Assembly: GCA_027493615.1 (NCBI GenBank)
Contig: JAOSKK010000038.1
Coordinates: 907,333 to 971,332, forward strand
Origin: Verrucomicrobiota bacterium
GTDB taxonomy: Bacteria; Verrucomicrobiota; Verrucomicrobiia; Limisphaerales; J093
Direction of reading: 5' to 3'
DNA length: 64,000 nucleotides
A program made the translations under genes and the position numbers. Under the pieces are notes generated by a model. It ran no database searches and was not told the origin of the DNA. It saw only the letters and a list, made by a program, of their open reading frames with translations. Each line of letters begins with the position of its first letter. Positions within the stretch are counted from its first letter, which is position 1. Shown here piece after piece: positions 16,638 through 54,110 of the stretch.

Positions 16638-16735
16638 ACGCTCCGCGCGGGACGCACGAACCCCGACCGGCGCGAAGTGTTTGGAGTGCGGGGGTTCACC
16701 CCCGCTTTTCGTGCTCGTTTGATGGCGAGTGAGCG

Positions 16736-17479: not shown

Positions 17480-17497
17480 GACGGGTGATTCGACGAC

Positions 17498-21900: not shown

Positions 21901-22213
21901 CCTGCATGATGTCCACGTCCGTGCCCACGTCGAAGTAGACGTTCAGCGTCATCTTGCCGTCGTTGGCGTTGAACGACTGGAGGTAGAGCAACTTGTCGAC
22001 GCCGTTGACCTTCGACTCGATGGGGGTGGCGACGGATTCCATGACGGCCTCGGCGGCGGCGCCGCGGTACGTCGTGGTCACCTGGATCATCGTGGGACTG
22101 ACCGGCGGGTACTCGGAGATGGGCAGTCGCTTGAGGCTGATCGCGCCCACGATCACCGTCAGGATGGCAATGACCATCGCGACGATGGGGCGTCGGATGA
22201 AGAAGTCGGCCAT
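18808..22213 (-). CDS. RND (HAE1, AcrB-like) efflux permease; frame break at C6 run 20832-20837; 3' end uncertain
   Basis: ATG at 22213 ([18 protein letters not shown]). The first about 460 aa lie in the frame of ORF 17498..23548 and the rest in ORF 18808..20856 ([20 protein letters not shown] ... [12 protein letters not shown]). As read, the open frame overlaps the OMF gene by about 180 nt. The real stop is probably near 19.0-19.1 kb. Confidence 0.9.
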
Positions 22214-22218
22214 ACGGG

Positions 22219-23548: not shown

Positions 23549-23587
23549 GTCGTATTTTAGGCAGCGAGACAGCCGTTTTTGTCAATC

Positions 23588-24588: not shown

Positions 24589-27554
24589 GTGTCTACAACG
24601 CCGGCAACCCTGCCGACGGCCGGAGGCGCAGTCGGGTTGACGCGAATCACGGGCCGCATTCTGGACGCCGAATCTCGCGCTGTGACCTCGCAAAACTACG
24701 AGGACGCCGTTCCTGCCCCATCCAAATACTCGCAACTCGCGATCCGAACGGCTAATCTCCCGGTCGGATTTGTGACGAGATTGCCGCCCATATCATGGTG
24801 GGGCTGGGCGTGTCTGGGAACGCTCCTGCTGACCCTGGCCGCGCCCGGCGCCTCCGCCGCGTCTCCCCAGCGCGTCCTGCTCATTCATTCGTTTGGGCGC
24901 GACTTTGCACCCTACAATCATTTTTCGGGAGTCCTTCGCACCGAGCTGGTGAGCGAAGCGTCGGGGTCGGTGGACGTCGTGGAGGTGTCTCTCGATACCG
25001 CGCGCGTCGCCGACACGGCGCCGGAAGGGCCGTTGGTGGATTACCTGGCCGCCCTGTCTGCCAGTCGGCCTCCGGACCTTGTGATCCCCGTTGGCGGGCC
25101 GGCGGTCCGGTTTGCCCAACGCCACCGGCAAGGGCTCTTTCCCCACACTCCGTTGTTGATCGGCGGCACCGATGAACGTCACATACAACGGGCCACGCTC
25201 ACGACGAACGACGCCGTGGTGGCGGGACGGATTCAACTGCCCCGGGTGGCGCAGACCATCCTGCAGGTACTGCCTCAAACCACGAATGTGGTGGTGGTGG
25301 TCGGTGCCAGCCCGCTTGAGACCTTCTGGCTCACGGAGATCCGCGACGCCTGGCAGCCCTTCACCAATCGTGTGAGCCTCCAACCGCTCAACGAGCTCGC
25401 TTTCGCGGAAATGCTCAAACGCTGCGCTGCCCTTCCACCGAGGTCCGCGATCTTCTACGCGCTCATGATCATGGATGTCGAGGGCATCCCGCAATGGGAG
25501 GAAGGCGCCTGACTCGACTGCACGGCGTCGCCAATGCGCCCCTCTTCGGCGTCTTCGAAACCCAACTGGGGCGGGGGATCGTGGGTGGGCCGCTGGTGGA
25601 CATGCAGGAGATGGGGCGCAACACGGCGAAGGTCGCCGCTCGCATCCTCCGTGGAGAGGCGCCGGCCGATCTTGGGGTCGCGCCGCAGGAGATGGGCGCC
25701 CCGCAATTCGACTGGCGGGAGCTGCAGCGCTGGGGCATCAGCGAAGCGCGGCTGCCTGCCGGCAGCATCATCCGCTTCCGGCAGCCCGGCCTCTGGGAAC
25801 GTTACTGGTGGCTGGTGTGTGGGGGAGTGTTGGTCGGCGCCGTCGAAGCCGCCCTGATCGTCGGTTTGCTGGTTCACCGGGCCAGACGTCGCCACGGGGA
25901 GGCCGCGGCGAAGCTGATCGCGGATCTGTCCTCGAGGTTCATCAACCTTCCCGCCGATCAAGTGGATCCCGAGATTGAGGTAGCGCAGCGCCGAATCTGC
26001 GAAGGCATGCGGCTGGATTTGAGCGCGCTTTGGCAGTGGACAGACGGCTCGCCGCGCGGTTTCAAGATGACCCATCTCTATCGTGCGCTGGCGGGTCCCC
26101 GGTCCCCGAACGATTTGACGCGCAGGAAGTGTTCCCCTGGTGCCTGAAGCAGTTGCTGGCGGGAAAGGCCATTCCGGTTTCCTCGCTGGACGCGCTACCT
26201 CCGGAGGCGGGCCGCGACCGGGAGTCGTGGCTGCATTTCGGCATCAAGTCGAACCTGACCTTTCCCCTGTTGACCGCGGGCGGGCAACTCCTTGGGGGCG
26301 TGAGCTTCAACACCGTGCGGAAGGCGCGCTCCTGGCCCGAGGAATTCGTAACACGGCTGGAATTGGTCGCGCAGATCTTTGCCAATGCGCTCGCGCGGCA
26401 GCGTGCGGACCAGGAGTTGTGCGAAAGCGAAGCCCGGCTCACCCTGGCGGCGGATGCCGCCGCCGCGGGTTTGTGGAGACTGGACCTTGCCACCCAGTGC
26501 TTTTGGATCACGAACAAGGCGCGGGAGCTGTTTGCGTTTGGCGCCGACGAAGTCGTGACCTTCGACCGGTTCTTGAGCCTGGTCCATCCTGACGATAGGG
26601 AAATGGTGCGCCAGAAAGTGCAGCAGGTGGTGCAGTGCAAAGGGGAAATCCAGGTTGAATACCGAATCCTGCGGCCTGACGGGCGCCTGCGCTGGATGAA
26701 GTCGCAGGGCCGCGTCCATGCCGGTTCATCTGGGCAGCCCGATTACCTGATGGGGGTAACGGTGGACATCACGGAGCAGCGGTTGGCGGAGTTGGAGGGC
26801 CAGCGCCTGCGTGACAATCTGGCGCATCTGACGCGCGTGAACACGCTGGGCGCCTTGTCGGGCTCATTGGCCCATGAGCTGAACCAGCCGCTCGGCATCA
26901 TCCTCAGCAACGCGCAGGCGGCGCAGGAGATGCTCTCTCAGGAACCGCCGGATACGGCCGAAGTGCAGGCCATCCTCACGGACATCGTGAAGGCCGATCG
27001 CCGGGCGGGCGAGGTCATCGAACGGCTCCGCGCTTTGTTCAAAGGCGGGCAGGCGTCGCTGCAGAGGCTCTCACTCAACGCCGTCATTGAGGAAGTGCTC
27101 CGCCTCATCCACGCCGAGCTCCTCAGTCGCGGGATCACCGTCCTTCGCGAGCTGGCTTCGGACTTGCCGCCGGTCCTCGGGGATCGCGTGCAACTCCAGC
27201 AGCTCGCGCTCAACCTCATCCTCAACGCGGCTGAGGCCATGTCCGCCAATGCGCCCGGAACGCGTCGGCTTCACCTGCGGACGATGCTACACTTGAACCA
27301 GGTCCGCGCCTCCGTGCGGGATGAGGGCGAAGGTTTGCCCGCCGATGTGGAGCGCCTTTTCCAGCCGCTCTATACCACCAAGCCGCAGGGCCTGGGCATG
27401 GGCCTGGTGATCTGCCGATCCGTGGTGGGCGCCCACGGTGGCCGCCTATGGGCGGAAACCCATCCCGAGGGGCGGCGCCGTGTTCCACTTTGAGTTGCCG
27501 GTGGCAGGGGGGCGAGTGACGGGTAATCCGTCATCCGGGATGGGGGATCGGTGA
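24589..27554 (+). CDS. Sensor histidine kinase with periplasmic solute-binding-protein-like domain, TM, GAF-like, PAS, HisKA, HATPase_c; frame broken about 3 times
   Basis: ORF 24589..25512 gives RVLLIHSFGRDFAPYNHFS..., an ABC-substrate-binding-like fold. ORF 25494..26147 gives a TM segment (YWWLVCGGVLVGAVEAALIVGLLV). ORF 26030..27493 gives the PAS part (EYRILRPDGRLRWM), the H-box (SLAHELNQPL) and the N and G boxes. A final 1-nt shift near 27470 restores GGAVFHFELPVAGG with a stop at 27552-27554. An alternative start is the GTG at 24772. Confidence 0.85.
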
Positions 27555-27739: not shown

Positions 27740-28399
27740 ATGACTTCTCACCCCTCCCCAACGCCTCCCTCGCCGCCAGGCATGGTTTATCTCCTCGATG
27801 ACGAGCCGGACCTGGTCAAGGCGCTGACGCGCTTGCTGCGGGCCAAACGCTTCGAGGTGCGGGCGTTTACCTCGGTACGCGCGTTCTTGGAAGCCTATCG
27901 CCCGGAGGACACGGCTTGTCTCGTGTTGGACGTGGCCATGCCAGAACTGGACGGCTTGGAGTTGCAGCGGCGTCTCACCCAGCAGGAAAGTCCGCTCCCC
28001 ATCATCTTCCTGACCGGTCACGGTGACATCCCCATGAGCGTGCGCGCCATCAAGGCCGGGGCGGCGGATTTTCTGACCAAGCCCGTGGACGCCGCCGCCT
28101 TGGTCGCGGCGGTCCGCGCGGCTCTTCAACTGGGAGAAACCCGGCACGCCACCTTCGCGGAAACCCGAACCTGGAAGGCCCGGCTGGCCCGCCTCACGCC
28201 CCGCGAACGTGAAGTCATGGAGCACGTCGTCGCCGGTCGGCTCAACAAGCAGATTGCGGCGGATCTGGGCACCGGGGAACAGAACATCAAGCTGCACCGC
28301 GCGCACGTCATGGAGAAGATGGGCGTCGAGTCCCTCGCCGATCTCGTCCGCGTTGCCGGGCGGTTGGGCGTGGGCAGATCGACGAACAATGAAGCGTGA
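27740..28399 (+). CDS. FixJ/LuxR-family response regulator
   Basis: Intact 219 aa. Receiver motifs are VYLLDDEPD, LVLDVAMPELDG and DFLTKP. The LuxR HTH reads LTPREREVMEHVVAGRLNKQIAADLGTGEQNIKLHR. Confidence 0.95.
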   Translation: MTSHPSPTPPSPPGMVYLLDDEPDLVKALTRLLRAKRFEVRAFTSVRAFLEAYRPEDTACLVLDVAMPELDGLELQRRLTQQESPLPIIFLTGHGDIPMSVRAIKAGAADFLTKPVDAAALVAAVRAALQLGETRHATFAETRTWKARLARLTPREREVMEHVVAGRLNKQIAADLGTGEQNIKLHRAHVMEKMGVESLADLVRVAGRLGVGRSTNNEA

Positions 28400-28520: not shown

Positions 28521-28911
28521 ATGCCCGTGGCACGACCAACGGTCGGAGTCTTGGATGACGAACCGGAGATGCGCAAAGCGCTGCGCCGGTTGCTCAATTG
28601 CCGGGGCTTCCAGGTGCTCGAGTATGAGCGGGGGAGCGGATCTCCTCGACGCCTTGGGTTCACACCCGTTGGACTGTCTGCTGCTGGACCTGCAGATGGA
28701 GGGTGTCAACGGATTTGAGGTGCTGGAGGTCCTTCTGGCCCTCCAGCACCCCGTCCCGGTCATCGTCATCACCGCTCACGATGAACCCGGCACGGCGGGG
28801 CACGTGCGCGATCTGGGCGCGGTTGCTTACCTGAAGAAGCCCGTGGACCGGGACGCCTTGTTCGCCTCCCTCTCAGCCGCCCTTACTCACCGCGAAATCC
28901 CATCGCCCTAA
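28521..28911 (+). CDS. Stand-alone receiver-domain response regulator; one frame break near 28630
   Basis: ORF 28521..28718 (VGVLDDEPEMRKALRRLLNCRGFQVLEY) joins ORF 28555..28911 (LLLDLQMEGVNGFEVL...VIVITAHDEP...AYLKKP). Confidence 0.8.
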
Positions 28912-28946: not shown

Positions 28947-31494
28947 ATGAATACTACAACGATTGCACCAAGCGAAGGAACGACCACCACCGCCGCCAGG
29001 ACCCGGGTGCTCTCCACCCAGGAACAGGCCATTGCCGAGAACAAGAAGGTATTGACCGGGACCGCCTCCGACCGGGTTCTCAGAATGTTTGAAGCCATCC
29101 GTGCCTCCGGTCCGCCCCGCGTCGCTCTGGAACGGGCGGTGTATTTCACGGAGTCCTTCAAAACCACCGAGGGTCAGCCGCTGGTCCTGCGCTGGGCCCA
29201 CGCCCTGAAGAACATCGCGGAGAAGATGTCCGTCGCCATCTTCGACGATGAGCTGATCGTGGGCCGCCCGTGTACCTGGTTCGGAAAGTACTCCCTGGTG
29301 TACCCGGAGCTTGACGGCACCATCATCCAGGAGGGAGCCAAGGCTTTCATTGAGGCTAAGAAGGCCGGAGCCCCGGATGCCGTGACCGTGACGGATGAAG
29401 ACAAGCAGATCATTGATGAGGTCCTTTTCCCCTATTGGAAGGGCAAGGACTTTACCCCGAATTTCATCAAGGCCCTGCCCCTGAGACCCGACACTTGTTC
29501 TGGGGTTCTGATCCCGAGAATGTGGGGACCAAGTTTTCGTTCGTGATCATTTCTACTTCCACCATGCGGCATTCCCAGAATTGGGTCCCCGATTTTGAGA
29601 AGATGCTAAAGCGGGGCTGCAAAGGTTTGCGCGACGAAGCCCAGGCAAAGTTGGCCGCGCTGGAAGATCCGCGCGACCTGGCGTTCAAGAGGCCCTTCTA
29701 CGAAGCGGCCATCATCACCTGCGACGCCTTGAGCCTCCTGGCCAAACGATACTCGGACTTGGCCGCAGGGATGGCAGCCAAGATGAAAGATGCCCAGCGC
29801 AAGAAGGAACTGGAGGAGATCGCGGCCATCTGCGCCTGGGTTCCAGAAAACCCGGCGCGCACCTTCCGGGAAGCGATCCAAGCGCAGTGGTTCACCCAGC
29901 TCTTCTCGCGTCTGGAGGAGATGGTCGGGGGACAAGTCAATCAGGGCCGGATGGATCAATATCTCTATCCCACCTACAAGAAGGACACCGAGACGGGGCG
30001 CCTCACGCCGGAGAGCGCGCAGGAGCTGTTCCAGTGCCTTTGGCTGCACATCATGCAGAGCATCGAGTCGCAAATGTCACCCTCCGCAGCCAAGGGCCGC
30101 GAGGGATTTTCCCACCACGAGACCGTGACCATCGGCGGCCAGACCACCGACGGTTTCGACGCCACGAACGAGCTCTCTTACCTGATCCTGCAATCGACCC
30201 GGCCGCTCAAGTGCAGCTACCCGGAGCTGGGGGTCCGGATCCACGCCAATACCCCCGACAAGTTCCTGCATGCTGTGGCCGAGACCATCAAGGACGGCAA
30301 GGGGGTCGCCCAAACTGATCAACGACGAGTTCGAGGTACCGTGGTTCATGAGCAACGGCATCGTAAAGCGGGAAGCCCTGGATTACGCCATGTCGGGATG
30401 CTCGGAATCGCGCCTGCCCAACCGCGAGACCCACAAGACCGGCAATGGCGGCATCAATTACGGCGTGGTCATGGAGATGACGCTCCGCGACGGCAAGGTC
30501 AAAATCTACAAGGACGAGCAGTTCGGCCTGAAGACTGGTAATCCGCGGACCTTCAAGACCTACGACGACGTGTGGGATGCGTTCACGATGCAGCTCAAGA
30601 ACGTCGTCAAGCACATCATGATCCAGAACTACGTGGCGGCCGGGATGAAGTCCAAGTACATCGCGGCTCCGCTGGCCTCCACGCTGCATGACCTGTGCAT
30701 GGAGCATGGCCGGGACCTCCACTCACACGCAGATTACATCCCCGGGGCCCTGGATGCTTCCTGCATTGACGGGCTTGGCGGGTTCGCGACCTGCATCGAT
30801 TCACTGGCAGCCATCAAGCACCTAATCTATGACACGAAAAAGCTGACCTGGGACCAGCTCCTGGAGGCCCTGGAGAACAACTGGGAGGGCAAGGAGGCCA
30901 TCCGCCAGATGTGCCTCAATGCACCCAAGTACGGCAATGGCATCGAGTGGGTGGATACCATCGGCTACCACATCCAGCGCACCGTGATGGAGTATGCCCA
31001 CAACCATCCCAGGCCGCACGGCCAGAGCGCCAACTATGCGCATCATCCCCATCACCTTCCACAACCCATGCGGCAAGGTGACCATGGCGACGCCGAACGG
31101 CCGGCCGGCCGGGGAGTACCTTTCTGACGGGATCGTTCCCTCGCACGGCTGCGATACCAAGGGGCCAACCGTTACCCTCCAGTCCATCGCCCGGGCGACC
31201 TGCCAAATCTACAAGACGCATCGCGAAGACCTGCTCAACATGAAGATGGCGCCTGCGAACGTGGCTGGCGAGGAGGGGACGCGCCGGCTCATGCAGCTCA
31301 TCCGCGCCTGGAGCAGCCAGAAGCACGCGCACATCCAGTTCAATATCCTCAATCGACAATCCCTGCTGGAGGCGCAGAAGAACCCGGAGAAGTACCGGGA
31401 TCTCGTCGTGCGGGTTGCCGGCTATTGCGCGTACTTCACCGACCTTTCGCCCTCACAGCAGGCGGAAATCATCGCGCGAACAGAAGAGCAATGA
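28947..31494 (+). CDS. Glycyl radical enzyme, PFL2/glycerol-dehydratase-like (1,2-eliminase type); frame broken 3 times
   Basis: Four consecutive pieces: 28947..29546, 29435..30541, 30270..31127 and 30994..31494. The shifts lie at the C4 run 29478-29481, the G5 run 30301-30305 and near 31020. The N-terminus LERAVYFTESFKTTEGQPLVLRWAHAL is typical of the PFL2 family. The Cys loop MSGCSES has its Cys codon at 30399-30401. The C-terminal glycyl radical motif is VVRVAGYCAYF (31411-31425). Total length is about 848 aa. Confidence 0.9.
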
Positions 31495-31574
31495 TCTGGG
31501 CCGTGGCATTAGAGCGACAGTGCAAACCATCTGACTCTTTGAGGGCCTCCGGTGTAGCAGGTGCGATCGCCGGA

Positions 31575-31589
31575 CAACAACAACAACAA
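31575..31589 (+). repeat. (CAA)5 / (AAC)n trinucleotide run in the GRE-AcnX intergenic spacer
   Basis: ggacaacaacaacaacaacgg is read directly at 31572-31592. It stands out in an otherwise GC-rich context and lies about 57 nt upstream of the ATG at 31647. Confidence 0.9.
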
Positions 31590-31646
31590 CGGTGCCGTCT
31601 TTCCGGCCCTGCAAGCGAGCGCCAAACATCACGGATAAGGAAGATT

Positions 31647-32081
31647 ATGGCACAGACAATTGTCCTGACCGGTATAGCCCGGTCAAAAGGGAAAGTGAAA
31701 GCCGAAGCGATGGTAAATCGCCAACGGATTGGATGGGCGTTCAACCACGTCGGCAACGAGGACGGCATGGTTATGGCGCCAGGCGCCGACACCAAAGGCA
31801 AAATCGTGACCGGCAAGATTTTTGTCTACCCCACGACGGCCGGCTCCACCAGCGGTGCCTTCAGTCTGTACTACAAGTGCAAGGTCTCGAACCACGGTCC
31901 CGCAGGCCTCATCTGTCAGGAGGTCCACTGGATCGACATCAGCGGCGCCATCGCCGGGGAAATTCCGGCCGTGGACAAGTTGGACCAGGATCCAATCACG
32001 ACCATTAAGGACGGCGACATGGTTGAGATCGACGCGCCCGAGGTTGGCGAGAAGGCCACCGTCACGATTACCCGCACGTAG
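31647..32081 (+). CDS. Aconitase X swivel-domain protein (DUF126; AcnX small subunit)
   Basis: The ATG at 31647 is preceded by aaggaag. The 144-aa product is MAQTIVLTGIARSKGKVKAEAMV...GKIFVYPTTAGSTSGAFSLYY...GPAGLICQE...AIAGEIPAVD, which fits the DUF126 pattern. Confidence 0.85.
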   Translation: MAQTIVLTGIARSKGKVKAEAMVNRQRIGWAFNHVGNEDGMVMAPGADTKGKIVTGKIFVYPTTAGSTSGAFSLYYKCKVSNHGPAGLICQEVHWIDISGAIAGEIPAVDKLDQDPITTIKDGDMVEIDAPEVGEKATVTITRT

Positions 32082-32123
32082 CCAGCAGCCCACGTCACCC
32101 CCACTAACCAAAGCCATATCAAT

Positions 32124-33608
32124 ATGAAAATGAAGCTGACCCGGTACCAGCAGGAAATGCTCGACGGCAAGCACGGCGAAGCCAAGCAATTCTGCATGGA
32201 CAAACTCATGGACTTCGGCAAAGCGGTCGAAGCCACGGAAATGGTGGACCTCGTCCTCACGCTGAACTGCTGTCCCATTTACGTGAAGGATCGGCTGGAG
32301 CCGAAGCGACTCGAGAAGCTCAATGCTTACGACCTGGGCCACAGCCCGCTCTACGATCCAATCTTTGCCATGAAGGACGCGCACGTCCACGACGAATCCG
32401 GCACCGAGTGCGGGAACGACCCCTATATGTGCCAGTTGGACAAGGCCAAAGAGATCAAGGGACCGCCGAATGGCAAACCCTGGAACTTCGAGATTCCCGG
32501 CAAAGGCACCTTCAAGCTGGACGAGGAAATGGTCGGCGGCTTCCAGGCGGGTTACGACAAGCTGATGGAACATGGCTGGCTCCCCTGGCTCTCGTGTAAC
32601 CCCTATTTCAACACGCGCATCCCCAAGATGGGCGAGTACGCCGCCAGCTCCGAGTCCAGCGCCGCGTGCTACATCAACACCATCCTTGGCGCCCGAACCA
32701 ACCGGGAATCTGCCGTCAACACTGTTTACTGCGCCTACACCGGGTGCCTGCCCAAATACGGCACTCACCTCGACGAATTCCGCGCGGCCAAGTGCATCGT
32801 CGAGCTGACGGACGAGGTTCGTGACAACATCAAGGGAATGGCTGATTGGGGCGCCCTGGGTGCCGCCATTGCCGAGAAAGCGCAAAACCGGATCATGGCG
32901 GTGCTCAATCTGCCCAAGAAGATGGGTCCGGGCGCGACCAAGAATCTGATATCCTGCGCCTCGCCCGGCATGAACGACCCCATGATGCATCTGATGGGCT
33001 ACACGCCGGAGTCCCCGACGCTGGAGGCCGCCTTCAAAGGCAAGATGCCCAAGAACCCGGAACGGTACACAGTCACGATGGAGGACGTCGTCGAGATGTA
33101 CCGCCATCTCAACGCCATCGCCCCGGCGCCCGGTCCGGAAAGGGCGAAGCCCGTGGACATCGTCTTTTTCGGTTGTCCGCACGCGACCTGGGATGAGGTC
33201 CGCGAGGTCGCGCGCCTGGTCAAGGGGAAGAAGGTCAAGGAGGGAGTGAAGCTGTGGGTGCAGACCGACACGCCCACGTACTTCATGGCCCAGCACTACG
33301 GCGATACCAAGACCATCGAGGATGCGGGCGGCCACATCTTCCACCAGACCTGCATCGCCATGTCCCCGATCCGGCACTACCCGAAGGGAACAGTCATCGC
33401 GACCGACAGCTTCAAGTACGTGAAGCTGGGCGGCGGCTTCGGACCGAAATGGATCTATGGCAATCCGGAAGCCCTCGTCAACGCGGCCGTCACCGGGGTG
33501 TTCACGCCGACCGCGCGCTGGGAGTACTGGAGCAAACCGCGCAAGGACCGGCTCGACAGCGAAAGGGAACGCCCTCTCTATCAGGGGGAAAGGCCAATGG
33601 TCGACTAA
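32124..33608 (+). CDS. Aconitase X catalytic-domain protein (DUF521; AcnX large subunit)
   Basis: Intact 494 aa. The sequence MKLTRYQQEMLDGKHGEAKQFCMDKLMDFGKAVEATEMVDL... has the typical DUF521 start, and the size fits. It is paired with the DUF126 gene 43 nt upstream. Confidence 0.85.
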   Translation: MKMKLTRYQQEMLDGKHGEAKQFCMDKLMDFGKAVEATEMVDLVLTLNCCPIYVKDRLEPKRLEKLNAYDLGHSPLYDPIFAMKDAHVHDESGTECGNDPYMCQLDKAKEIKGPPNGKPWNFEIPGKGTFKLDEEMVGGFQAGYDKLMEHGWLPWLSCNPYFNTRIPKMGEYAASSESSAACYINTILGARTNRESAVNTVYCAYTGCLPKYGTHLDEFRAAKCIVELTDEVRDNIKGMADWGALGAAIAEKAQNRIMAVLNLPKKMGPGATKNLISCASPGMNDPMMHLMGYTPESPTLEAAFKGKMPKNPERYTVTMEDVVEMYRHLNAIAPAPGPERAKPVDIVFFGCPHATWDEVREVARLVKGKKVKEGVKLWVQTDTPTYFMAQHYGDTKTIEDAGGHIFHQTCIAMSPIRHYPKGTVIATDSFKYVKLGGGFGPKWIYGNPEALVNAAVTGVFTPTARWEYWSKPRKDRLDSERERPLYQGERPMVD

Positions 33609-33634
33609 CAGCGAGCTGCCGTCTGAAGATGCGG

Positions 33635-33663
33635 CGAGCACCCCGGTTCGCCGGGGGTGCTCG
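33635..33663. terminator. GC-rich hairpin with UUCG loop after the AcnX large-subunit gene
   Basis: Left arm cgagcaccccgg, loop ttcg, right arm ccgggggtgctcg, giving 12 bp with one bulged G. It lies 27 nt after the stop at 33608. There is no U-tract. Confidence 0.45.
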
Positions 33664-33751
33664 AACCCCCAGCGGATGGCGCCGCCCGTCTCTTGCCATA
33701 TCACATGAGCCATCCACGAAACGTCGAGCGAAGCCCAAAGATGATCCAGCC

Positions 33752-34365
33752 ATGAAGGCGCACACGACGCTTCCCTTTGTTGACACCAACATTATCCCTG
33801 ACAGGAATGCCGGGATCGGGAGCCTTCTGTGGGATCTCCAGAATCCTCACGATCCCGACCGGGATGGACCGCCCCTGTTAGACCCTGAGTTCGCGCTCCT
33901 TGATGTCGGCGTATCCCGTGCCAAGGTGGCGACCGCTCTCAAAACGCTCCTGGTAAGGGACCTCGCAATGGACGTCGATTATGTGGCCACGGAGCGCGTT
34001 GAGGCGGTGCCCTATGCGAACGTCACTCTCGCGGGAGCGAGGGCGGAGAAGATCCGTCGGTGCTTGTCCGCGATCTTTTCTTCCAAGGGGGCGAACTGCG
34101 AGGTCAAGGACTGGCATTTTGTGGTTAATTGTAAAGGCAAGGTCTCTTCCGTCGCCTACTTGTACCGTCGGCATGGGAATGAGGTCTGTGAGTCGTACTT
34201 CCTGGGCCGGACGTTCATGTACTCCGGTGAACCCGTTGAGTTTTCCGACCCACGGCTTAATGAGATGCTGGCCTTTGATGTGCCGAAGATCGAAGCACGC
34301 ATTGAGCTGGAGAAAAGGCGGGATAGCGATCCAGCCAGCCAGCCCCTTCCTGGGCTGGCTACAGG
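33752..34365 (+). CDS. Hypothetical protein (orphan), possibly the N-terminal part of a single 33752..35013 gene
   Basis: ATG at 33752 in the frame of track ORF 33254..34558 (MKAHTTLPFVDTNIIPDRNAGIGSLLWDL...). Past about 34360 that frame turns into low-quality sequence, while ORF 34366..35013 starts there in another frame. No family recognised. Local GC is low. Confidence 0.45.
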
Positions 34366-35013
34366 ATGGAAAGAAATCCTCTGGAGACCGGTCTCGCGGA
34401 ACTCGGGATCACCTTGCAGAAGACCGATGTTCCTCAACGGATCAAGAACAGGCAGAACGTTCTGTTTCTTGGAAATGTCCTCAATCATTATCCGCAAAGT
34501 GAACAGCCCGATGCACTCGAGCGGGTCGCCGTCAGCTTGGAATCCGGGGATCTTGTGATCGTTCAGACGGATGACGTCGAGACTCCCTGCATCGAGGTTT
34601 TCCGTGTCAAAGGGCAGGGCTTTCGAAAAACGCGTGAGCGTGTGAGGTGGATCGATACCAAACAGCTAGAGGTCCGGAAGCCTGACCGCGCCTCGGGATC
34701 ATGGCGGCAGATCCGCTTGAAGCCGGAAGTCGAACGGCTGGCCAGCCGTTTGATTGAGTATCTCGAGAGGAAGGCGAGCCTCCCGGGGTGGAGTCAAAGA
34801 GATAATCAGGCCTTTGTCCATCAACATGTACGTTGCGTATTTCGAACCTTCTTCAGGGCTTTGCCTGCTGAAGAGACTATTCGTATCGCGATCCGAGAGG
34901 CCCTGCGGAGACTGGCATCCGAGGGAGGCCTGAATGGGATTGCTATCTTCAACGATGATGCGGAAGTTGCCTGTGGAGGCGCGTTGGGGGTAGACCCGAG
35001 TCACATCGCGTGA
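34366..35013 (+). CDS. Hypothetical protein (orphan)
   Basis: 215-aa ORF in the least GC-rich part of the window (my hand count gives 40% G+C at 34441-34500). NVLFLGNVLNHYP...SLESGDLVIV is faintly methyltransferase-like, but I cannot support a family call. Confidence 0.5.
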   Translation: MERNPLETGLAELGITLQKTDVPQRIKNRQNVLFLGNVLNHYPQSEQPDALERVAVSLESGDLVIVQTDDVETPCIEVFRVKGQGFRKTRERVRWIDTKQLEVRKPDRASGSWRQIRLKPEVERLASRLIEYLERKASLPGWSQRDNQAFVHQHVRCVFRTFFRALPAEETIRIAIREALRRLASEGGLNGIAIFNDDAEVACGGALGVDPSHIA

Positions 35014-35119
35014 GATGCCGATGTGAACACACTTGACGCCAGAAGCCGCCAGGCGGAGACACCGCTGAGAGAGTTGGCGGGCAAATGAAGCGGAACAGCC
35101 CACAGAAGAGAGTCGAGCA

Positions 35120-35992
35120 ATGAATGAATTCCTTCAGCGCGGGTTGAACCCGGTTATTCTGATCTATGTGGTCAGCGCCATGCTGGCCTTGGGGTTAGGT
35201 CAGACCGTGAGCCACATTCTTGGACCGCTTCGCAGTGTCCGCCTAACGCTCTCTGCGGTGGTGGCGAGCTACCTCATTCTCCCTCTGCTGGCTGCCTTGA
35301 CCGCGAGGCTTTTCGCACTTGAACCAGGGCTGCGATATGGTCTGGTGCTGATGGCCATGTCAGCAGGAGCCGAGGTCGGCCCGCTCTTAACCACTACCTC
35401 CAATGCCAACGTCAGGCTTTCCGCTGGCATTCTGGTCCTGTCCTTGGGCATTACGATCCTCTACTTGCCTCTGATGCTGGGAGTGCTTCTCCCGGATGTG
35501 CATTTTGACGTGAAACATCTGCTGCTGAAGTTGTTCCTAACCATCGTGGCACCGTTGCTTCTCGGTCTGCTTATCAGATCCCGATGGGAGAAGGTCGCCC
35601 ACGCCGCTGAAAAGCCTCTGCATCAAATTTCCCGTGTATTCGTCATCTTGCTCACTGTCATTGTCCTCCTGCTGTATTACAGGCGCATCATGGGGATGTT
35701 CGGCACCTACGCAATCTTGGCCGCCATCATCAGTGTCGTCGGCGGCTTTGGGATCGGCTACTTGCTGGGGTGGCCGGAACGGGGCACAAGGCTGGCCATG
35801 GGATACATGCATGGTGCGCGCAGCGCCAGCATTGCAGTGATGGTGGCCGCCGATGTGTTTCGGGATCAGCCAAACGCGATGCTGATGATCGCGACCGTGA
35901 CGCTGTTTATTCTGGGGTTGCTCATACCCGCCTCCTTTTTGTTCAGAATCAAGCACGAGCCCGGAGAAGAACAACCTCAATCCATCAGTTGA
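35120..35992 (+). CDS. Bile acid:Na+ symporter (BASS/SBF-like) family transporter
   Basis: Intact 290 aa with about 9 hydrophobic segments. The layout and motifs (LVLMAMSAGAEVGP, MHGARSASIAVMVA) resemble the SBF-like/BASS family. Confidence 0.7.
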   Translation: MNEFLQRGLNPVILIYVVSAMLALGLGQTVSHILGPLRSVRLTLSAVVASYLILPLLAALTARLFALEPGLRYGLVLMAMSAGAEVGPLLTTTSNANVRLSAGILVLSLGITILYLPLMLGVLLPDVHFDVKHLLLKLFLTIVAPLLLGLLIRSRWEKVAHAAEKPLHQISRVFVILLTVIVLLLYYRRIMGMFGTYAILAAIISVVGGFGIGYLLGWPERGTRLAMGYMHGARSASIAVMVAADVFRDQPNAMLMIATVTLFILGLLIPASFLFRIKHEPGEEQPQSIS

Positions 35993-35998
35993 CGCACC

Positions 35999-37159
35999 AT
36001 GAAACGCCCATCCAAACGCATCGGAATCAATCTCGGCGGCGGCTATGTCGCCGGGATCAATGCGGTGATTGCCGGCACGGTTCTTGCGGGGCAGGAGTTG
36101 GGTTGGGAGGTCATGGGCGTCCGCGACGGCTTTGATGGGCTGCTTTTTCCGGAACGCTACCCCGAGGGCGGACTAGTCCAACTCACGCCACAACTACTCG
36201 AGAACCTCTCGGGTAGCGCCAGGCCCATTTTGGGCAACGCCACCCGGACGGACCCTTTCCGCATCCGGCAGGTGAACGCCGAGAACATGGTCGAGGAGTT
36301 GGACTGCTCCAGCGACCTGATCGCTAAGGTCAACGTCGAGAAGTTGGACGCGGTCATTTCCGTCGTCGGCCCGCAAGCGCTGAGCATTCTCTTCCGGCTC
36401 CATCGTCATGGACTCAAGACGGTCTGCGTGCCGACTTCCGTGGAAAACGACGTGGCCGTGACGCAACTCTCGTTCGGATTCAACAGCGCACTGAGCTTTG
36501 CGGTGGACATGCTTGACCGCGTGCGGCAGGCGGGGCAAACGGCGCGGAAGATCGGGGTGGTCGAGGTCCTGGGCGAGCACGCCGGCTGGCTGGCCCTGCA
36601 AGCCGCCGTCGCCGTGTGCGCTGATGCGGTGCTGATCCCGGAGATTCGCTACGACCTCCAGAAGGTGGCCGCGAATCTCAGGGAAAGACTCCAGACGGGA
36701 CGCGCCTCCGGTCTCGTGGTGGTCGCCGAGGGCGCCCGGCCGCGCGACGGACAGCAAACTGGCGCAGGGGCAGCGACGCCGGACTCTCTCAAAGCCTCGC
36801 TTTCTCCGGGGGCGACCGGGGAGGGAGGCTCGCACGTTATCGAATCGTCCGGTCGAACGGCCCAGTCTGTGGCGCTCCGACTTCAACGGTTGACCGACCG
36901 GGCGACCTACCCGCTCGCCTTGGGCCCGTTGGTCAAAGGCGGGGCGCCCACGGCCGTGGATCGGCAGCTTGGGCTTGCTTACGGCGCCGCCGCCGTGCGC
37001 GCGCTCCATGAGAATCAAACCGGCGTGATGGTGGCCTTCCAACCGCCGGACTTGAGATTCGTGCCGCTGGCGGACGCCATCAACAAAGTCCGCACCGTGC
37101 CTGCTGACAGTGTCTTCGTTCAGACCGCTCGGTCGCTGGGCATCGCGTTGGGAGATTGA
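35999..37159 (+). CDS. Phosphofructokinase-fold protein with degenerate catalytic motifs
   Basis: Intact 386 aa that aligns by eye to PfkA. IGINLGGGYVAGINAVI sits where PfkA has GGDAPGMNAAI. AVISVVGPQAL sits where PfkA has VVIGGDGS. CVPTSVENDV sits where PfkA has PGTIDND. VVEVLGEHAGWLAL sits where PfkA has VVEVMGRYCGDL. PLVKGG sits where PfkA has HIQRGG. Confidence 0.8.
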   Translation: MKRPSKRIGINLGGGYVAGINAVIAGTVLAGQELGWEVMGVRDGFDGLLFPERYPEGGLVQLTPQLLENLSGSARPILGNATRTDPFRIRQVNAENMVEELDCSSDLIAKVNVEKLDAVISVVGPQALSILFRLHRHGLKTVCVPTSVENDVAVTQLSFGFNSALSFAVDMLDRVRQAGQTARKIGVVEVLGEHAGWLALQAAVAVCADAVLIPEIRYDLQKVAANLRERLQTGRASGLVVVAEGARPRDGQQTGAGAATPDSLKASLSPGATGEGGSHVIESSGRTAQSVALRLQRLTDRATYPLALGPLVKGGAPTAVDRQLGLAYGAAAVRALHENQTGVMVAFQPPDLRFVPLADAINKVRTVPADSVFVQTARSLGIALGD

Positions 37160-37167
37160 GGTGACTT

Positions 37168-38147
37168 ATGGCGAGTGACGATCGGCAAGGGGCAGGCGGC
37201 AAGGGGCAAGGGGCGAGGGGCATCGTCCTGAACATCCAGCATTTCTCGACGCACGACGGGCCGGGGATGCGCACGACCGTGTTTCTCAAGGGCTGCACGC
37301 TGCGCTGCAAATGGTGCAGCAATCCCGAGAGCATCCATCCCAAATCCGAATTGGGTTACAACCTCAACAAGTGCATCGGCAAGGACCAGTGCGGATTCTG
37401 CCTCAAAGAATGTCCGGAGTCGGCCATCTTCAACGTGGATTCCGACCCGAAGGTTCGCATCAACTGGGACCTCTGCACCAACTGCGGCAAGTGCGTGCCC
37501 GTCTGTCCGCCCCAGGCGCTCTACCTATTCGGCAAGGAAATGACGGTGGATGAGGTGCTCGATGAGGTGGAGCAGGACAGCAGCTTCTATCGGGAATCGG
37601 GCGGTGGCATGACGCTCAGCGGTGGTGAGTGCCAGCTTCAAGCGGATTTCGCTGCGGCGTTGTTGGCTGGTGCGCACCAGCGCGGCATCAACACGGCCAT
37701 TGAGACCGCGTTCAACGTCCCCTGGCCGCACGTCGAAAAGGTCCTGCCCCACGTGGACCTCGTGCTCCATGATCACAAGCTGACCCTTTCCGAACGGCAC
37801 AGGAAATGGACGGGCGTGGACAACCAGCGGATCCTGGAGAACATGAAGCGGGCCTACGAGACCTGGCCGGAGAAGACGTTTGTGGCGAGGACCCCCTGAT
37901 CCCCGGCGTCAACGACGACGAGGAACACATCCGCGCCGTGCTGGCTTTCATCAAGCCCTACAAGAACGTGGTGGGCTACGAACTGCTGCCCTATATGCGG
38001 TTTGGCGAAAGCAAGTACGGGTTCCTGGGCAAGGTTTATGAAATGCAGGATTTCGAACCCCCTTCGGCTGAAACGCTTGCCCGCCTGCGCGCCATCATTG
38101 ACGAGGCATTGGGCCGGGGTGGCGACCGCTCACTTACAGCAAAATGA
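37168..38147 (+). CDS. Glycyl radical enzyme activating enzyme (radical SAM, with two ferredoxin-like clusters); frame break at C5 run 37892-37896
   Basis: GMRTTVFLKGCTLRCKWCSNPE carries the CX3CX2C motif. CIGKDQCGFCLKECP and CTNCGKCVPVCP are the auxiliary 4Fe-4S motifs. SGGE is present. The tail continues in ORF 37806..38147 (LIPGVNDDEEHIRAVLAFIK). Confidence 0.9.
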
Positions 38148-38148
38148 C

Positions 38149-38439
38149 ATGCAACCCCTGACATCATCCACTCCCTCCCGCCGCCAATTCCTGAACCTGC
38201 TGCCAACTCTGGCTGCTGCCATGGCCGGCCCCGCGCTCGTCCGCGCGCAGGAAGGAACCCCGGGGATGAAGCACCGCCAGGATCGCCGTGATGACCGGGG
38301 CGAGCGGCTGCAGCAGCGCGATGACCAGTTCGTCGAACGGCGCGACGACCCGATCGGCGTCCGCGGTCCCCAACGACGCGAGGATCGCCGAGTGGTGCGG
38401 GATGACCGCCGGGTGGATCGCCGCGAGCGAGTCTACTGA
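38149..38439 (+). CDS. Small Tat-signal protein with Arg/Asp-rich mature region
   Basis: ATG at 38149, 2 nt after the activase stop. The twin-arginine signal is MQPLTSSTPSRRQFLNLLPTLAAAMAGPALVRAQ. The mature part is a DRR/RDD-rich region of about 63 aa. Confidence 0.5.
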   Translation: MQPLTSSTPSRRQFLNLLPTLAAAMAGPALVRAQEGTPGMKHRQDRRDDRGERLQQRDDQFVERRDDPIGVRGPQRREDRRVVRDDRRVDRRERVY

Positions 38440-38458
38440 CGACGAGAAAGGACGATCC

Positions 38459-39229
38459 ATGAGAAAAGGCATTTCGACCCTGGCCCTCCTCACGATCTCC
38501 ATGCTGGCAGTCGTCAGGATGGCTCTCGCGCAGGACCCATCCATTGCCCGTCTGGTCCATTTCAGCGCCCCGCCGGCCTCTCGCGTCCAGATCGAGGATG
38601 CCATCAAGAAGCAGATGGACTGGCGTCGCGAGCAGGGGGATTCCTGGCGGTGGCTCACCTGGGAGTACGCGAGCGGCGAGGTGCCCCGGTATTGTGTCGC
38701 GACGTTTGGCCATGACTGGGCGGACTTTGATGCGATGCCGCTGGCTGGCCGCGCGGAGGAAGCGGGAGGAGGGCTGGCATCCACGTTGTCTGCGCTGCCG
38801 CCGGTGGTGCAGTATTTCGAGCACCTCGCAGAGGTGAGCGATTACGGGAGCCCGACGAACACGCCGACCGTGGCCGAGATTTCGCTCTACCAGTTGCACT
38901 ATGGCAAGCAGGCCCAATTCTACGCGGCGCTGCGCGAGTTTCACGCTGCTCTGAGCCGGGTCGGCGGGGTGAATCGCTACGAGTGGTTCGAGCTGCGCAG
39001 CGGCGGTGAAACCCCTCAGTTCCTGCTCCTGTTGCCGCGAGCCAACTGGGCGGCCTTCGACGTGCGCACCGACGCGCTACGCGACGCCCTGGAGCAGGCG
39101 CTGGGAAAACGGAAAGCCGCCCGAGTATTCGAACAGTTCACTGCCGCTGTGAGGCTGCACGTGCGGTGCGCGGTGCGATTGCGCCCCGACCTTTCCTTGC
39201 TGCCCGCGGCGGGTGATTCGAGACCGTGA
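38459..39229 (+). CDS. Secreted hypothetical protein
   Basis: ATG at 38459 gives MRKGISTLALLTISMLAVVRMALAQ, a signal peptide. It is the remainder of ORF 38288..39229. No family recognised. Confidence 0.55.
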   Translation: MRKGISTLALLTISMLAVVRMALAQDPSIARLVHFSAPPASRVQIEDAIKKQMDWRREQGDSWRWLTWEYASGEVPRYCVATFGHDWADFDAMPLAGRAEEAGGGLASTLSALPPVVQYFEHLAEVSDYGSPTNTPTVAEISLYQLHYGKQAQFYAALREFHAALSRVGGVNRYEWFELRSGGETPQFLLLLPRANWAAFDVRTDALRDALEQALGKRKAARVFEQFTAAVRLHVRCAVRLRPDLSLLPAAGDSRP

Positions 39230-39295
39230 GGCGGCTCCTCATCAATCACAGGGATCCTCAGACGCGGATGTGACAAGGCAGGTTCATACGGAACC

Positions 39296-40215
39296 ATGGA
39301 CTACGACATGGAACTGAGGCACACAACCCCCATCTGCAAGGCACTCTTCGTGGCCGCAATCGGCTTCGCCGGCATCGTGCTGTCCGCCTGCGCTCAGGAC
39401 TCCGATGACTTCGACCGCACCCTCACCCTCGCGCCCGCCGACGCTACGTCCTCGGGCGGTGGCGGCTCGAGCGTAGGAGACGAGCCGTCCCAAGCCGCCG
39501 ATCTCGCCAAGCAGCTCGCCAACCCGGTCGCGGCTTTGATGAGCATCCCGATCCAAAACAACTTCGACTGGGGCGCCGGACCGAACGGCGACGGCTTCCA
39601 ATACAAGGTCAACATCCAGCCGGTTGTTCCGATCACTCTCAGCGAGAACTGGAACGTCATCTCGCGCACCATCCTCCCGGTCGTCTACCAGGAGAACATC
39701 ATTGGCACCTCCAGCCAGTCCGGGCTCTCGGACACGTTGCAGAGCCTCTTCTTCTCCCCCAAGGCGCCGACGGGAGGCGGCTGGATTTGGGGCGCCGGTC
39801 CGGCGTTCCTCCTACCCACCGCTACTGATGATCTGCTCGGCGCGGAGCAATGGGGGCTGGTCCGACCGCGGTGGTGCTCAAGCAGCAGAAGGGCTGGACC
39901 TACGGGATGCTGGCCAACCACATCTGGTCGTTTGCCGGGGAGAGCGGTCGCCAAGACGTGAACGCCACGTTCCTCCAGCCGTTTCTTACCTACACGACCA
40001 GGAAGCAGACCACGTTCAAGTTCAACACCGAGACCATCTACGACTGGGGCAACGAACAGTGGATCGTGCCCCTCAACCTGATGGTTGCGCAGCTCGTGAA
40101 GATCGGCAGGACGCCCGTCCAGTTTGAGATGGGCGGCCGCCGTTACGCCGAGCACGCCAACGATGGTCCGGAGTGGGGGCTGCGGTTTTCAGTGACCTTC
40201 TTGTTCCCCAAGTGA
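39296..40215 (+). CDS. Putative outer-membrane beta-barrel protein (paralog 1); one frame break near 39850
   Basis: It has a signal peptide and the conserved LAKQLANPVAALMSIPIQNNFDWG. Alternating beta-strand-like segments follow, and the protein ends ...WGLRFSVTFLFPK. Pieces are 39296..39961 and 39850..40215. It is a paralog of 44231..45089. Confidence 0.65.
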
Positions 40216-40467
40216 CCCGGCACCAAGGCATGGCTGATCGAGACTCTCGACCGTTGGAAGGCCTGGGACGGAAGATCCCTCGCGAGGCGATGCCTCAGAC
40301 CTGCAACGTGTGCCATCGTGGATCACGCCCTTCGGAGTCGCAGCTCGCTGTTCCTCGCCTCGCTACACCTGGAATCCTCGTCGACTGGGGCAGGCATGAA
40401 ACCTGACTCAATCACACCGGATTCTCCCGGACGAGGATACCAGCGCTAGCCGAGAGACCAGATCGTC

Positions 40468-42272: not shown

Positions 42273-42366
42273 ACGCTCCCGCGTATGAAACGACTGAGCG
42301 AACCTCGAGCTAGGGCGCCAGCTGTTGAACCAACTGCCGGAACGATTCGAGTTCACCAATGAACCC

Positions 42367-42741
42367 ATGATCACGACCGCCGTTTTCGACACCAAACCGT
42401 ACGACCGTGAGCCGCTGCAGCACGCGGCGGCCAAGAGCAGCATCGAGTGGCGCTTCCTCGACTTTCGCCTCACGAACGAAACTGCGCCGCTTGCCAAAGA
42501 CGCCCAAGCCGTCTGCGTCGTTGTCAACGACCAGGTGGATCGGCCCTGCCTTGAGGCGTTGGCTCCCCAGGGCGTCAAGCTCGTGATCCTGCGCTGCACG
42601 GGCTTCAACAACGTGGATATCGCCGCCGCCAAAGCGCTGAAACTGGCCGTCTCGCGCGTCCCGGTCTATTCGCCTGACTCGGTGGCCGAGTATACCGTCG
42701 CGTTGCTGCTGGCGCTTAACCGCAAGATTCATCGCGCCTAA
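42367..42741 (+). pseudogene. Truncated D-isomer 2-hydroxyacid (D-lactate) dehydrogenase, N-terminal about 125 codons only
   Basis: MITTAVFDTKPYD...AVCVVVNDQVDRPCLEALAPQGVKLVILRCTGFNNVDIAAAKALKLAVSRVPVYSPDSVAEYTVALLLALNRKIHRA followed by a stop. It is colinear with E. coli LdhA residues 1 to about 125, which continue YQRTRD... The NAD-binding domain is missing. Confidence 0.75.
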
Positions 42742-47966: not shown

Positions 47967-47994
47967 GGGTTCACTTGGTTAAGCACGACGCCGC

Positions 47995-54104: not shown

Positions 54105-54110
54105 AGCGAA

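Follow-up and report, generated by a model that had tools for sequence, protein, structure and literature searches.

In the genome of a Verrucomicrobiota bacterium we analysed a stretch of 64,000 nucleotides (nt) from contig JAOSKK010000038.1, which is called the window here. At positions 28947-38147 it holds an island of seven co-directional genes on the plus strand. They encode a glycyl radical enzyme (GRE), the small and large subunits of AcnX, an orphan protein, a BASS-family symporter, a protein with a phosphofructokinase (PFK) fold and a GRE activase. GREs carry out some of the hardest anaerobic chemistry, and about two dozen of their reactions are known. Three more co-directional genes, for a sensor histidine kinase and two response regulators, are found upstream of the island. 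The ten genes are listed below, with lengths in amino acids (aa).

24640..27519 (start approximate), plus strand: sensor histidine kinase, from Pfam; 961 aa in the intact copy of L045, a short-read assembly of the same strain
27782..28399, plus strand: LuxR/NarL-type response regulator (REC and GerE domains, Pfam), which recurs upstream of the cluster
28521..28911, plus strand: response regulator of a single domain (REC); an extra G at 28630 breaks the gene
28947..31494, plus strand: glycyl radical enzyme (PFL-like and Gly_radical domains), in four overlapping pieces of open reading frame (ORF); 848 aa when intact
31647..32081, plus strand: AcnX small (swivel) subunit, Pfam AcnX_swivel_put; 144 aa
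32124..33608, plus strand: AcnX large subunit, Pfam AcnX at 1.8e-88; 494 aa
33752..35013, plus strand: orphan protein of the 'hyp387/420' family; 420 aa, with a 1-nt deletion at 34333
35120..35992, plus strand: BASS/SBF-family anion:Na+ symporter, Pfam SBF and SBF_like; 290 aa
35999..37159, plus strand: PFK-fold protein without the kinase residues, Pfam PFK; 386 aa, directly upstream of the activase
37168..38147, plus strand: radical-SAM/Fer4 GRE activase, in two ORF pieces; 326 aa when intact

An earlier note on this DNA, made from its letters, had described eight genes. The gene content that it gave is borne out by Pfam, but the count is wrong. Its two overlapping 'orphan ORFs' (33254-35013) are one conserved gene of 420 aa split by a 1-nt deletion, and therefore there are seven genes. 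The gaps of 35, 6 and 8 nt that it had measured, in front of the GRE gene and on either side of the PFK-like gene, are exact on recount. It had also considered that the frameshifts might mark a decayed cluster. In the window the GRE is indeed in four pieces and the activase and orphan are in two each, so that the region could be taken for a decaying pseudogene island with real frameshifts in these three genes. We give this explanation almost no credence. In the alignment of L045 to window positions 26002-47156 there are no mismatches; the 20 differences are indels of one base, most of them in G/C runs, or about one per kb over 21 kb. The frame breaks at 29478, 30301 and 31035 in the GRE gene, at 34333 in the orphan gene and at 37892 in the activase gene are all single-base indels relative to L045, and three of the four breaks inspected by eye in the GRE and activase genes lie in C or G homopolymers. 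The same locus occurs in three independent short-read (Logan) assemblies, and all its genes are intact there (GRE 848 aa, AcnX 144 and 494 aa, orphan 420 aa, SBF 290 aa, PFK-like 386 aa and activase 326 aa). Genes outside the island, housekeeping genes among them, are split likewise, namely those for H+-pyrophosphatase (54037-56804, minus strand), AcrB (around 17501-23581, minus strand) and a 2-hydroxyacid dehydrogenase (42298-42738). On the same map against L045, indels at 26097, 27469 and 27507 interrupt the histidine kinase gene. Thus, all five frame breaks of the island are assembly errors, and the window is an error-prone, probably long-read assembly, which is likely to have such errors throughout. 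Because the frameshifts are artefacts of assembly, the cluster is not decayed.

The GC content of the island is 0.599, compared with 0.675 upstream and 0.667 downstream. The four GC values counted by hand in the earlier note (0.483, 0.400, 0.517 and 0.733) are exact, and the compositional island is real. It is a lower-GC island in a host of 67% GC, and we regard it as a horizontally acquired block. Neither a bacterial microcompartment (BMC) shell domain nor an integrase or transposase was present in the ORFs scanned (a selection of those between about 14 and 60 kb of the window) or in the precomputed Pfam annotation of the L045 locus, and BMC shell genes were also absent from ten annotated homologous loci. 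This agrees with what had been noted before, that the locus lacks shell genes and that no transposase or integrase flanks it. No riboswitch or other RNA was found by an Rfam scan of the window, and a promoter and terminator scan gave matches at chance level only. The histidine kinase has a periplasmic ABC_sub_bind-like domain and GAF, PAS, HisKA and HATPase domains (Pfam), and a homologous kinase lies upstream of the GRE in 15 loci. In the symporter, the SBF domain (PF01758) scores 56 bits against a 24-bit cut-off, the NCBIfam bass subfamily model stays below its cut-off, and the gene recurs in homologous clusters.

The GRE has the RVAGY glycyl motif with Gly825 (Pfam Gly_radical, 3e-26) and a Cys loop, G-C485-S-E487, which is invariant in orthologues. 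A Cys-x-Glu motif is among the features that define the 1,2-eliminase/isomerase class (PMC13450708). Both elements had already been recognised in the earlier note, and its assignment of the enzyme to the eliminase type is supported by them. The closest solved structures are IseG (5YMR), HpsG (6LON) and IslA (7KQ3), at 745-785 bits, and CutC comes next at 477 bits. The HpsG-type NCBIfam equivalog, NF048011, gives 986.9 bits for the repaired GRE sequence, which carries one extra residue, and this is a near miss of the 1000-bit cut-off.

We mapped the functional residues described in the IslA structure paper (PMC8473560) and in a 2026 review of GREs (PMC13450708) onto the GRE by alignment, with L045 numbering. 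The catalytic residues are kept, with Gly805 of IslA corresponding to Gly825 and Cys468 and Glu470 to Cys485 and Glu487. The two anion-binding arginines are kept as well, Arg189 as Arg208 and Arg678 as Arg698. The following positions of the pocket are changed: Gln193 to Asn212, Ile192 to Gln211, Ser190 to His209, Thr312/Thr313 to Gly329/Gln330, Trp374 to His391, Val680 to Ile and Phe682 to Ile. Two of these positions define the known families. In C-S lyases an Arg/Gln/Arg triad anchors the sulfonate (PMC13450708); the GRE has Arg208/Asn212/Arg698, and the Gln is replaced in all orthologues. Trp374 is conserved among IslA homologues (PMC8473560) and our alignments place the same Trp in IseG and HpsG; all orthologues of the window GRE have His391. 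L030, an IseG-type control from the same scan of genomes, has the canonical IseG residues, this Trp included. The pocket signature is invariant in every orthologue of at least 68% identity, whether its neighbour is AcnX or an SDR-family protein. The best 120 database matches all share the beta-1 motif R-(H/S)-S-Q-N-W, referred to as 'RHSQNW', and the GREs with this motif form at least four sub-clades, A-D, with the window GRE in clade A. From these residues we judge that the GRE is a catalytically complete eliminase-type enzyme with an anion anchor and with a pocket that is predicted to be more polar and roomier than that of the C-S lyases. By the same comparison it is placed in a separate clade beside IslA, IseG and HpsG, failing the residue tests that define these families.

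One alternative is an ordinary sulfonate C-S lyase locus, that is, an isethionate or 2,3-dihydroxypropane-1-sulfonate (DHPS) sulfite-lyase of known function in a new host. The arguments for it are that the nearest structures are IseG, HpsG and IslA, that both sulfonate-binding arginines are conserved, and the scores (987 bits with NF048011 for the GRE, with a cut-off of 1000, and 378 bits for the activase, with a cut-off of 430). We consider it quite unlikely. The replacement of the triad Gln by Asn and of the Trp by His, with five further pocket changes, is invariant across the family. The true IseG-type loci of the scan (L029-L033) have neither a PFK-like gene nor AcnX, and the Pfam survey of neighbouring ORFs showed no recurrent sulfite reductase, exporter or dehydrogenase. 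A GRE inside a characterised iso-functional cluster, which was named before as an outcome that would make the locus ordinary, is thus not what we find: the score is 987 against 1000 bits, and both the Gln and the Trp are absent.

The AcnX subunits match Pfam AcnX at 297 bits and AcnX_swivel at 63 bits. In the large subunit, three Cys cluster ligands and the Glu-Ser-Ser and Lys set align to TkAcnX (7CNR), in which the Glu-Ser-Ser and Lys residues bind the carboxylate and the beta-hydroxyl of the substrate (PMC8184944). The earlier note had called the AcnX 'split', and this is corrected here: two subunits are the normal architecture of type-II AcnX (PMC8184944). The similarity to 7CNR is only 115 bits, and there are about 50 extra N-terminal residues. 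The N-terminal 130 residues, the region where the phosphate-binding Gly48-Ser50 loop, Asn53 and Asn79 of TkAcnX, which mark the mevalonate-5-phosphate dehydratases (type IIb), are to be compared, have no reliable alignment to 7CNR. According to the literature AcnX types IIc-f are uncharacterised, and the window AcnX probably belongs among these subclasses. The two AcnX functions named in the earlier note, cis-3-hydroxy-L-proline (C3LHyp) dehydratase and archaeal mevalonate-5-phosphate dehydratase, are the sole functions in the searchable literature. Its statement that a GRE-AcnX pair has no precedent also stands, as neither the searchable literature nor the 2026 GRE review reports an AcnX next to a GRE.

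Both enzyme families include characterised members that act on hydroxyproline (PMC5144071; PMC13450708), and a substrate of the hydroxyproline type thus deserves mention. We find it highly improbable. AcnX scores 144 bits with the C3LHyp dehydratase equivalog (NF051439), far from the cut-off of 700, and the GRE scores 486 bits with the HypD equivalog, which has a cut-off of 1100. The GRE pocket is like that of IslA and not like that of HypD, and no proline-pathway genes were found nearby in the annotated loci or in the Pfam survey of neighbours.

The cluster is conserved far outside the Verrucomicrobiota. In a scan of one genome per species we collected 39 genome loci and mapped them gene by gene. 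Database relatives of the repaired GRE reach 85-89% identity, and the cultured Luteitalea sp. TBR-22 and Sphingomonas limnosediminicola are among them. In Luteitalea the order is GRE, AcnX small, AcnX large, orphan, NfuA, MetK, SBF, PFK-like, activase, beta-carbonic anhydrase and AAE transporter, and S. limnosediminicola has a shorter version of this cluster. Orthologues at 72-95% GRE identity are spread across more than 12 phyla. Their hosts comprise Desulfobacterota, Nitrospira, Verrucomicrobia, Planctomycetes, Bacteroidales, Binatia, Anaerolineales, Ignavibacteria, Cyanobacteria, NC10, Mycobacterium, Acidobacteria and Alphaproteobacteria. Most are lineages of soil and sediment, and aerobes are included. 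Among the independent clade-A loci with enough contig, the PFK-like gene is present in 23 of 24 and both AcnX subunits in 18-19 of 24; in the mapped clade-A loci the activase is found wherever the contig extends beyond the PFK-like gene. Four loci (L017, L021, L023 and L026) have an SDR at the position of AcnX, so that AcnX and SDR alternate beside what is essentially the same GRE pocket. The orphan gene occurs only with the AcnX variant closest to that of the window. The other variable members are BASS, the AAE transporter, beta-carbonic anhydrase, MetK and NfuA, each of which may be present or absent. Where the GRE has an identity of 50% or below and is thereby of the IslA/IseG type, the activase is its sole partner. 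The neighbours are therefore conserved beside homologous GREs, a test that had been suggested for the locus and that it passes in this gene-by-gene mapping.

The GC content of the GRE gene is 0.53-0.67 in hosts whose flanks range from 0.37 to 0.70, and its nucleotide identity between phyla is 82-91%. Some copies of the cluster are flanked by integrase or resolvase genes. A cluster GC of about 60% whatever the GC of the host indicates recent horizontal transfer.

Two of the mapped loci depart from the common pattern. L024, from a metagenome-assembled genome (MAG) of Leptolyngbyaceae, is the sole clade-A locus that has 10 kb of sequence downstream and yet no PFK-like or activase gene near the GRE. 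Its GRE also has a frame break. This could be a truly decayed copy, or the two genes could be elsewhere in the genome. L035, from an NC10 MAG, has two short stretches inside the cluster (16334-16471 and 20606-20776) whose similarity to the GRE is confined to its C-terminal glycyl-radical domain, at 63-68% identity over 46-57 aa. They may be 'spare part' genes like GrcA; the L035 locus itself is rich in frameshifts.

The PFK-fold protein matches Pfam PF00365 over the complete profile (199 bits, 1e-58, positions 1-277 of 277) and PFKs of the PDB at 1e-27 to 1e-32, and it is below the cut-offs of all NCBIfam PFK models. In an alignment of 20 members of the family to PfkA of E. coli, none has the GGDGS Mg-ATP motif, which gives way to V-G-(P/G/S)-(R/Q/H)-A, and all have Glu in place of the catalytic Asp127. 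Arg171 is never Arg (Glu in 15 of 20, otherwise Gln, Ala or Tyr), Arg243 is lost in every member (Tyr, Leu, Ser or Glu), and His249 survives in two members, with Gln or Pro in 17. At the effector site Arg21, Arg25 and Arg54 are lost and Arg154 is retained. Further retained residues are Arg72, Asn128, Asp129, Gly170, Glu222 and Arg/Lys252. The motifs GWLALQ, SFGFNSALS and VDRQLGLxYGA and an insertion of about 45 aa are specific to the family and strongly conserved. Thus, the PFK fold is degenerate, as had been proposed, with Mg-ATP-binding and fructose 6-phosphate-binding residues lost in the alignment.

The gene is closely linked to that of the activase. In seven annotated loci the two genes are -4 (overlapping) to +19 nt apart, and in metagenomes the activase is directly downstream of the PFK-like gene in 63 of the 63 loci with at least 300 nt of downstream sequence. 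In the larger of these 63 loci the GRE belongs either to the RHSQNW superclade or to a quite different family. This second family is about 30% identical to the window GRE, has the Cys loop GACVGSYIP, which lacks the Glu, and has no characterised relative. In clade D, the identity to the window is 74% for the PFK-like protein and 87% for the activase, against 62% for the GRE. Some loci of either GRE family also have MetK and NfuA in the module. The activase itself has a CX3CX2C motif from C43 and a ferredoxin-like insert for two clusters; it scores 340 bits with TIGR02494 (cut-off 174) and 378 bits in the C-S-lyase-related comparison (cut-off 430).

At L017 (6-2522) the gene of the second GRE family is followed by a PFK-like/activase pair, and so it is in 34 or more of the metagenome loci L054-L133, among them L082, L083, L093 and L113. 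Its glycyl loop is RVAGFSAFF, its best PDB match is HypD at 400 bits, and its scores are far below the cut-offs of the NCBIfam equivalogs. Sometimes there is a second PFK-like gene in these loci. In L017 a Fer4 protein and an FNR-like oxidoreductase follow.

The earlier note had modelled the PFK-fold protein as a working kinase that phospho-activates the imported substrate before the Fe-S and radical steps. A PFK match of 1e-58 over the whole domain would fit this, as would the retention of Arg72, Glu222 and an acidic residue at the position of the catalytic base, where Asp has become Glu. The substitutions in the family are hard to reconcile with it. GGDGS is gone in 20 of 20 members, Arg171 and Arg243 are never kept, His249 is kept in 2 of 20, the effector arginines 21, 25 and 54 are lost, and the NCBIfam PFK models stay below their cut-offs. 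In addition, the gene goes with the activase, also where the GRE is of an unrelated family; it tracks neither the GRE clade nor the choice between AcnX and SDR. We regard a kinase as very unlikely. Instead, as far as residues and gene order can tell, the PFK-fold protein belongs to an activation module together with the activase and is not a substrate kinase. A scaffold, a gate and the binding of an adenosyl ligand are possible roles. The protein is 100% identical to a GenBank '6-phosphofructokinase' of a Verrucomicrobia MAG, and several relatives carry this name in GenBank and the IMG database. Because the catalytic residues are lost, the name is doubtful and probably wrong.

The orphan protein has 146 close database relatives, all of them unannotated, and no match in Pfam or NCBIfam. 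Apart from the family itself, a profile search against 1.84 billion representative proteins gave one weak match, a 666-aa protein without a Pfam domain. The AlphaFold2 (AF2) model is of good confidence (pLDDT 86.7, pTM 0.87) and predicts two alpha/beta domains, and Foldseek gave no match to it in the PDB at E <= 0.001. A weak local resemblance of the model to class-I methyltransferases may be taken as a hint and not as a finding.

For the substrate, the genes around the GREs were considered. The recurrent transporters are BASS, AAE (Asp-Al_Ex) and SulP and, in Verrucomicrobia, the dicarboxylate porin DcaP. Beta-carbonic anhydrase recurs in the clusters. Among the 25 most frequent of the 105 Pfam families in 137 neighbouring ORFs, there is no sulfite-handling family. 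Across the clades, the context points to hydroxy-acid and keto-acid chemistry rather than to sulfonate respiration. A hydroxy-carboxylate of the glycerate, tartrate or dihydroxybutanoate type is our leading candidate, which we name tentatively. Something outside both the hydroxy-carboxylate and the sulfonate classes is possible but somewhat doubtful.

Further observations concern this context. The clade-B GREs (61-64% identity; L049, L050 and L051) stand beside a recurring SDR-CMD-BKACE-MFS module, and in L049, a Rubrivivax sp. MAG, acetone carboxylase subunits, an AMP-forming acyl-CoA ligase and a thiolase are nearby (91-9656 and 16147-20464). The clade-B context hints at acetoacetate or a beta-keto acid as product. 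Eleven loci of clades A, C and D encode, close to the GRE, a protein of about 920 aa that is MGH1-like and of the GH63 family of mannosyl-/glucosyl-glycerate hydrolases. The gene is found in L048 (16764-19526), L026 (18931-21678), L015 (403-3084), L053 (21404-22543) and L036 (14683-15024), and also in L056, L063, L066, L078, L079 and L091. The protein is 54-77% identical across phyla and has no NCBIfam match. Its role may be to free the acid substrate by hydrolysis of a glycoside, for example glucosyl- or mannosyl-glycerate.

A new sulfonate is an alternative that we think unlikely, yet it deserves discussion. The GRE could be, for example, a 3-sulfolactate sulfite-lyase that forms pyruvate and sulfite, with AcnX or SDR interconverting sulfolactate isomers or precursors. 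The GRE is in a sister clade to the C-S lyases, the anion anchor is kept, and the polar residues H209, Q211, N212, Q330 and H391 could hold an added carboxylate. TauD and rhodanese genes near one clade-B locus would also be in line with a sulfonate. However, AcnX needs a hydroxyl beta to a carboxylate, and sulfolactate has no such hydroxyl. No recurrent sulfite-handling genes were seen in about 30 neighbourhoods, and the beta-carbonic anhydrase, BKACE, acetoacetate and GH63 contexts are left unexplained by this alternative.

Three other types of chemistry were considered and rejected. Cleavage of C-N bonds in carnitine- or choline-type substrates does not suit an anchor that binds anions, and no BCCT or trimethylamine genes are present. 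C-C cleavage of 3-hydroxy acids or malate in the manner of a 'formate-lyase' has a rough free energy of about +20 to +27 kJ/mol, a back-of-envelope estimate from standard values. A phosphate-ester substrate has no supporting context beyond a strain-specific GDPD gene downstream of the island.

Taken together, we think that this intact, horizontally acquired operon probably encodes a catabolic system that works by anaerobic radical chemistry and whose type has not been described before. The two-component system would sense an extracellular solute and induce the operon, and the BASS symporter would import an anionic hydroxy compound. AcnX, as a (de)hydratase of beta-hydroxy acids and enoates, would supply or interconvert a hydroxy acid, either as precursor of the GRE step or as a step on its product. 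In other lineages the SDR would do the equivalent job as a beta-keto/beta-hydroxy oxidoreductase. The acid group of an HO-C-C-X substrate would be held by Arg208 and Arg698 during radical 1,2-elimination. The GRE would abstract a hydrogen from the carbinol carbon while Glu487 deprotonates the hydroxyl, and the vicinal leaving group, hydroxyl or sulfite, would depart to give a keto or aldehyde acid. For the substrate, which is less certain than the system as a whole, our best guess is a small hydroxy-carboxylate related to glycerate, tartrate or dihydroxybutanoate, and 3-sulfolactate is the foremost alternative. The PFK-fold protein would be a non-catalytic or re-purposed partner of the activase in a module for activation and maintenance, sometimes with MetK and NfuA.

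We further conjecture, with less assurance, that a PFK-fold pseudo-kinase is an obligate third component in a distinct lineage of GRE activation, which has spread horizontally with at least two uncharacterised GRE families to many phyla of soil and sediment, nominal aerobes included, and which here serves a new radical reaction of a hydroxy-carboxylate, with AcnX and the orphan protein. It might, for example, stabilise, gate or service the activase, or handle its adenosyl cofactor or products.

Several points weigh against these proposals. The nearest characterised GREs all bind sulfonates, both sulfonate-binding arginines are kept, and the GRE is 13 bits under the HpsG-type equivalog cut-off; TauD and rhodanese genes are present near one clade-B locus, as mentioned. 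The hydroxy-carboxylate assignment is drawn from genomic context, and AcnX may act upstream of, downstream of or in parallel to the GRE step. For the activation module, some clade-B and clade-C GRE loci have an activase and no PFK-like gene, so the latter is not universally required. The case for a putative interaction between the PFK-like protein and the activase consists of gene order and co-conservation. The AF2 model of the PFK-like protein is poor (pLDDT 65) and unfit for a fold search.

The system is of interest for several reasons. In the searchable literature, including the comprehensive 2026 GRE review, we found no cluster that pairs a GRE with AcnX, a dead PFK fold and this orphan family. 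The RHSQNW beta-1 motif marks a large, well-defined GRE clade with a distinctive pocket. The GRE-AcnX partnership is the first that we could find, and it may give a function to an uncharacterised subclass of type-II AcnX. If our view of the PFK-fold protein is true, a glycolytic fold re-purposed and locked to the activase would be a new component of GRE activation, and this view accounts for the '6-phosphofructokinase' names in GenBank and IMG records. The orphan protein family is confined to this operon. The transfer between phyla has reached lineages that are considered aerobic, which suggests that an anoxic metabolism of soils and sediments has gone unrecognised. As the cluster is carried by the cultured Luteitalea sp. 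TBR-22, Sphingomonas limnosediminicola and Roseomonas rosulenta OP-27, the system is directly testable.

Other genes lie around the island. Downstream of the activase, three small co-directional genes of 72, 256 and 302 aa (38160-40220; L045:12224-14219) have no Pfam match and did not recur when the neighbour ORFs of the homologous loci then collected were clustered. They are probably strain-specific and outside the conserved cluster. Four phosphorus-related genes are also found near the island, for PPK2 (15053-15868, minus strand), a 601-aa GDPD glycerophosphodiesterase (40468-42272, plus strand), a 930-aa phosphoesterase/beta-propeller protein (45178-47978, minus strand) and the H+-pyrophosphatase (54037-56804, minus strand). 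GDPD is beside the cluster in no other locus examined.

Among known systems, the C-S lyases IslA, IseG and HpsG are the closest. The fold, the glycyl loop, the thiyl Cys, the Cys-x-Glu motif and both anion-binding arginines are shared with them, and the activase has the same type of ferredoxin insert. The window GRE differs by the pocket changes given above, including Gln193Asn and Trp374His, and by a glycyl loop that reads AGYC instead of AGYS; the IseG-type GREs of the same scan are 42-45% identical to it. Its partners are AcnX, the orphan and the PFK-like protein, and its hosts are mostly from soil and sediment, including aerobes. With the loci of GRE-associated microcompartments (GRM) the cluster has in common a GRE eliminase and an activase in a catabolic operon, but BMC-H and BMC-P shell genes are absent from the scanned window ORFs and from the ten annotated homologous loci. 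The characterised AcnX of the 7CNR type has the same two subunits, three Cys ligands and Glu-Ser-Ser and Lys residues, and is distant in score (115 bits to 7CNR; 144 of 700 bits with the C3LHyp equivalog). Like the 6-phosphofructokinases (PfkA, PF00365), the PFK-fold protein has a full-length PFK domain with Arg72, Asn128, Asp129, Gly170, Glu222 and Arg/Lys252; unlike them, its family lacks GGDGS, Asp127, Arg171 and Arg243, has the insertion of about 45 aa and is encoded beside a GRE activase. Finally, the known accessory proteins of GREs (HPAD gamma, BSS beta/gamma and GrcA) are likewise extra proteins genetically locked to a GRE system (PMC13450708). They are small, carry Fe-S clusters or a glycyl domain, and have the GRE as their binding partner. 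The PFK-fold protein of the window, in contrast, is 386 aa long, tracks the activase and appears to serve at least two unrelated GRE families.

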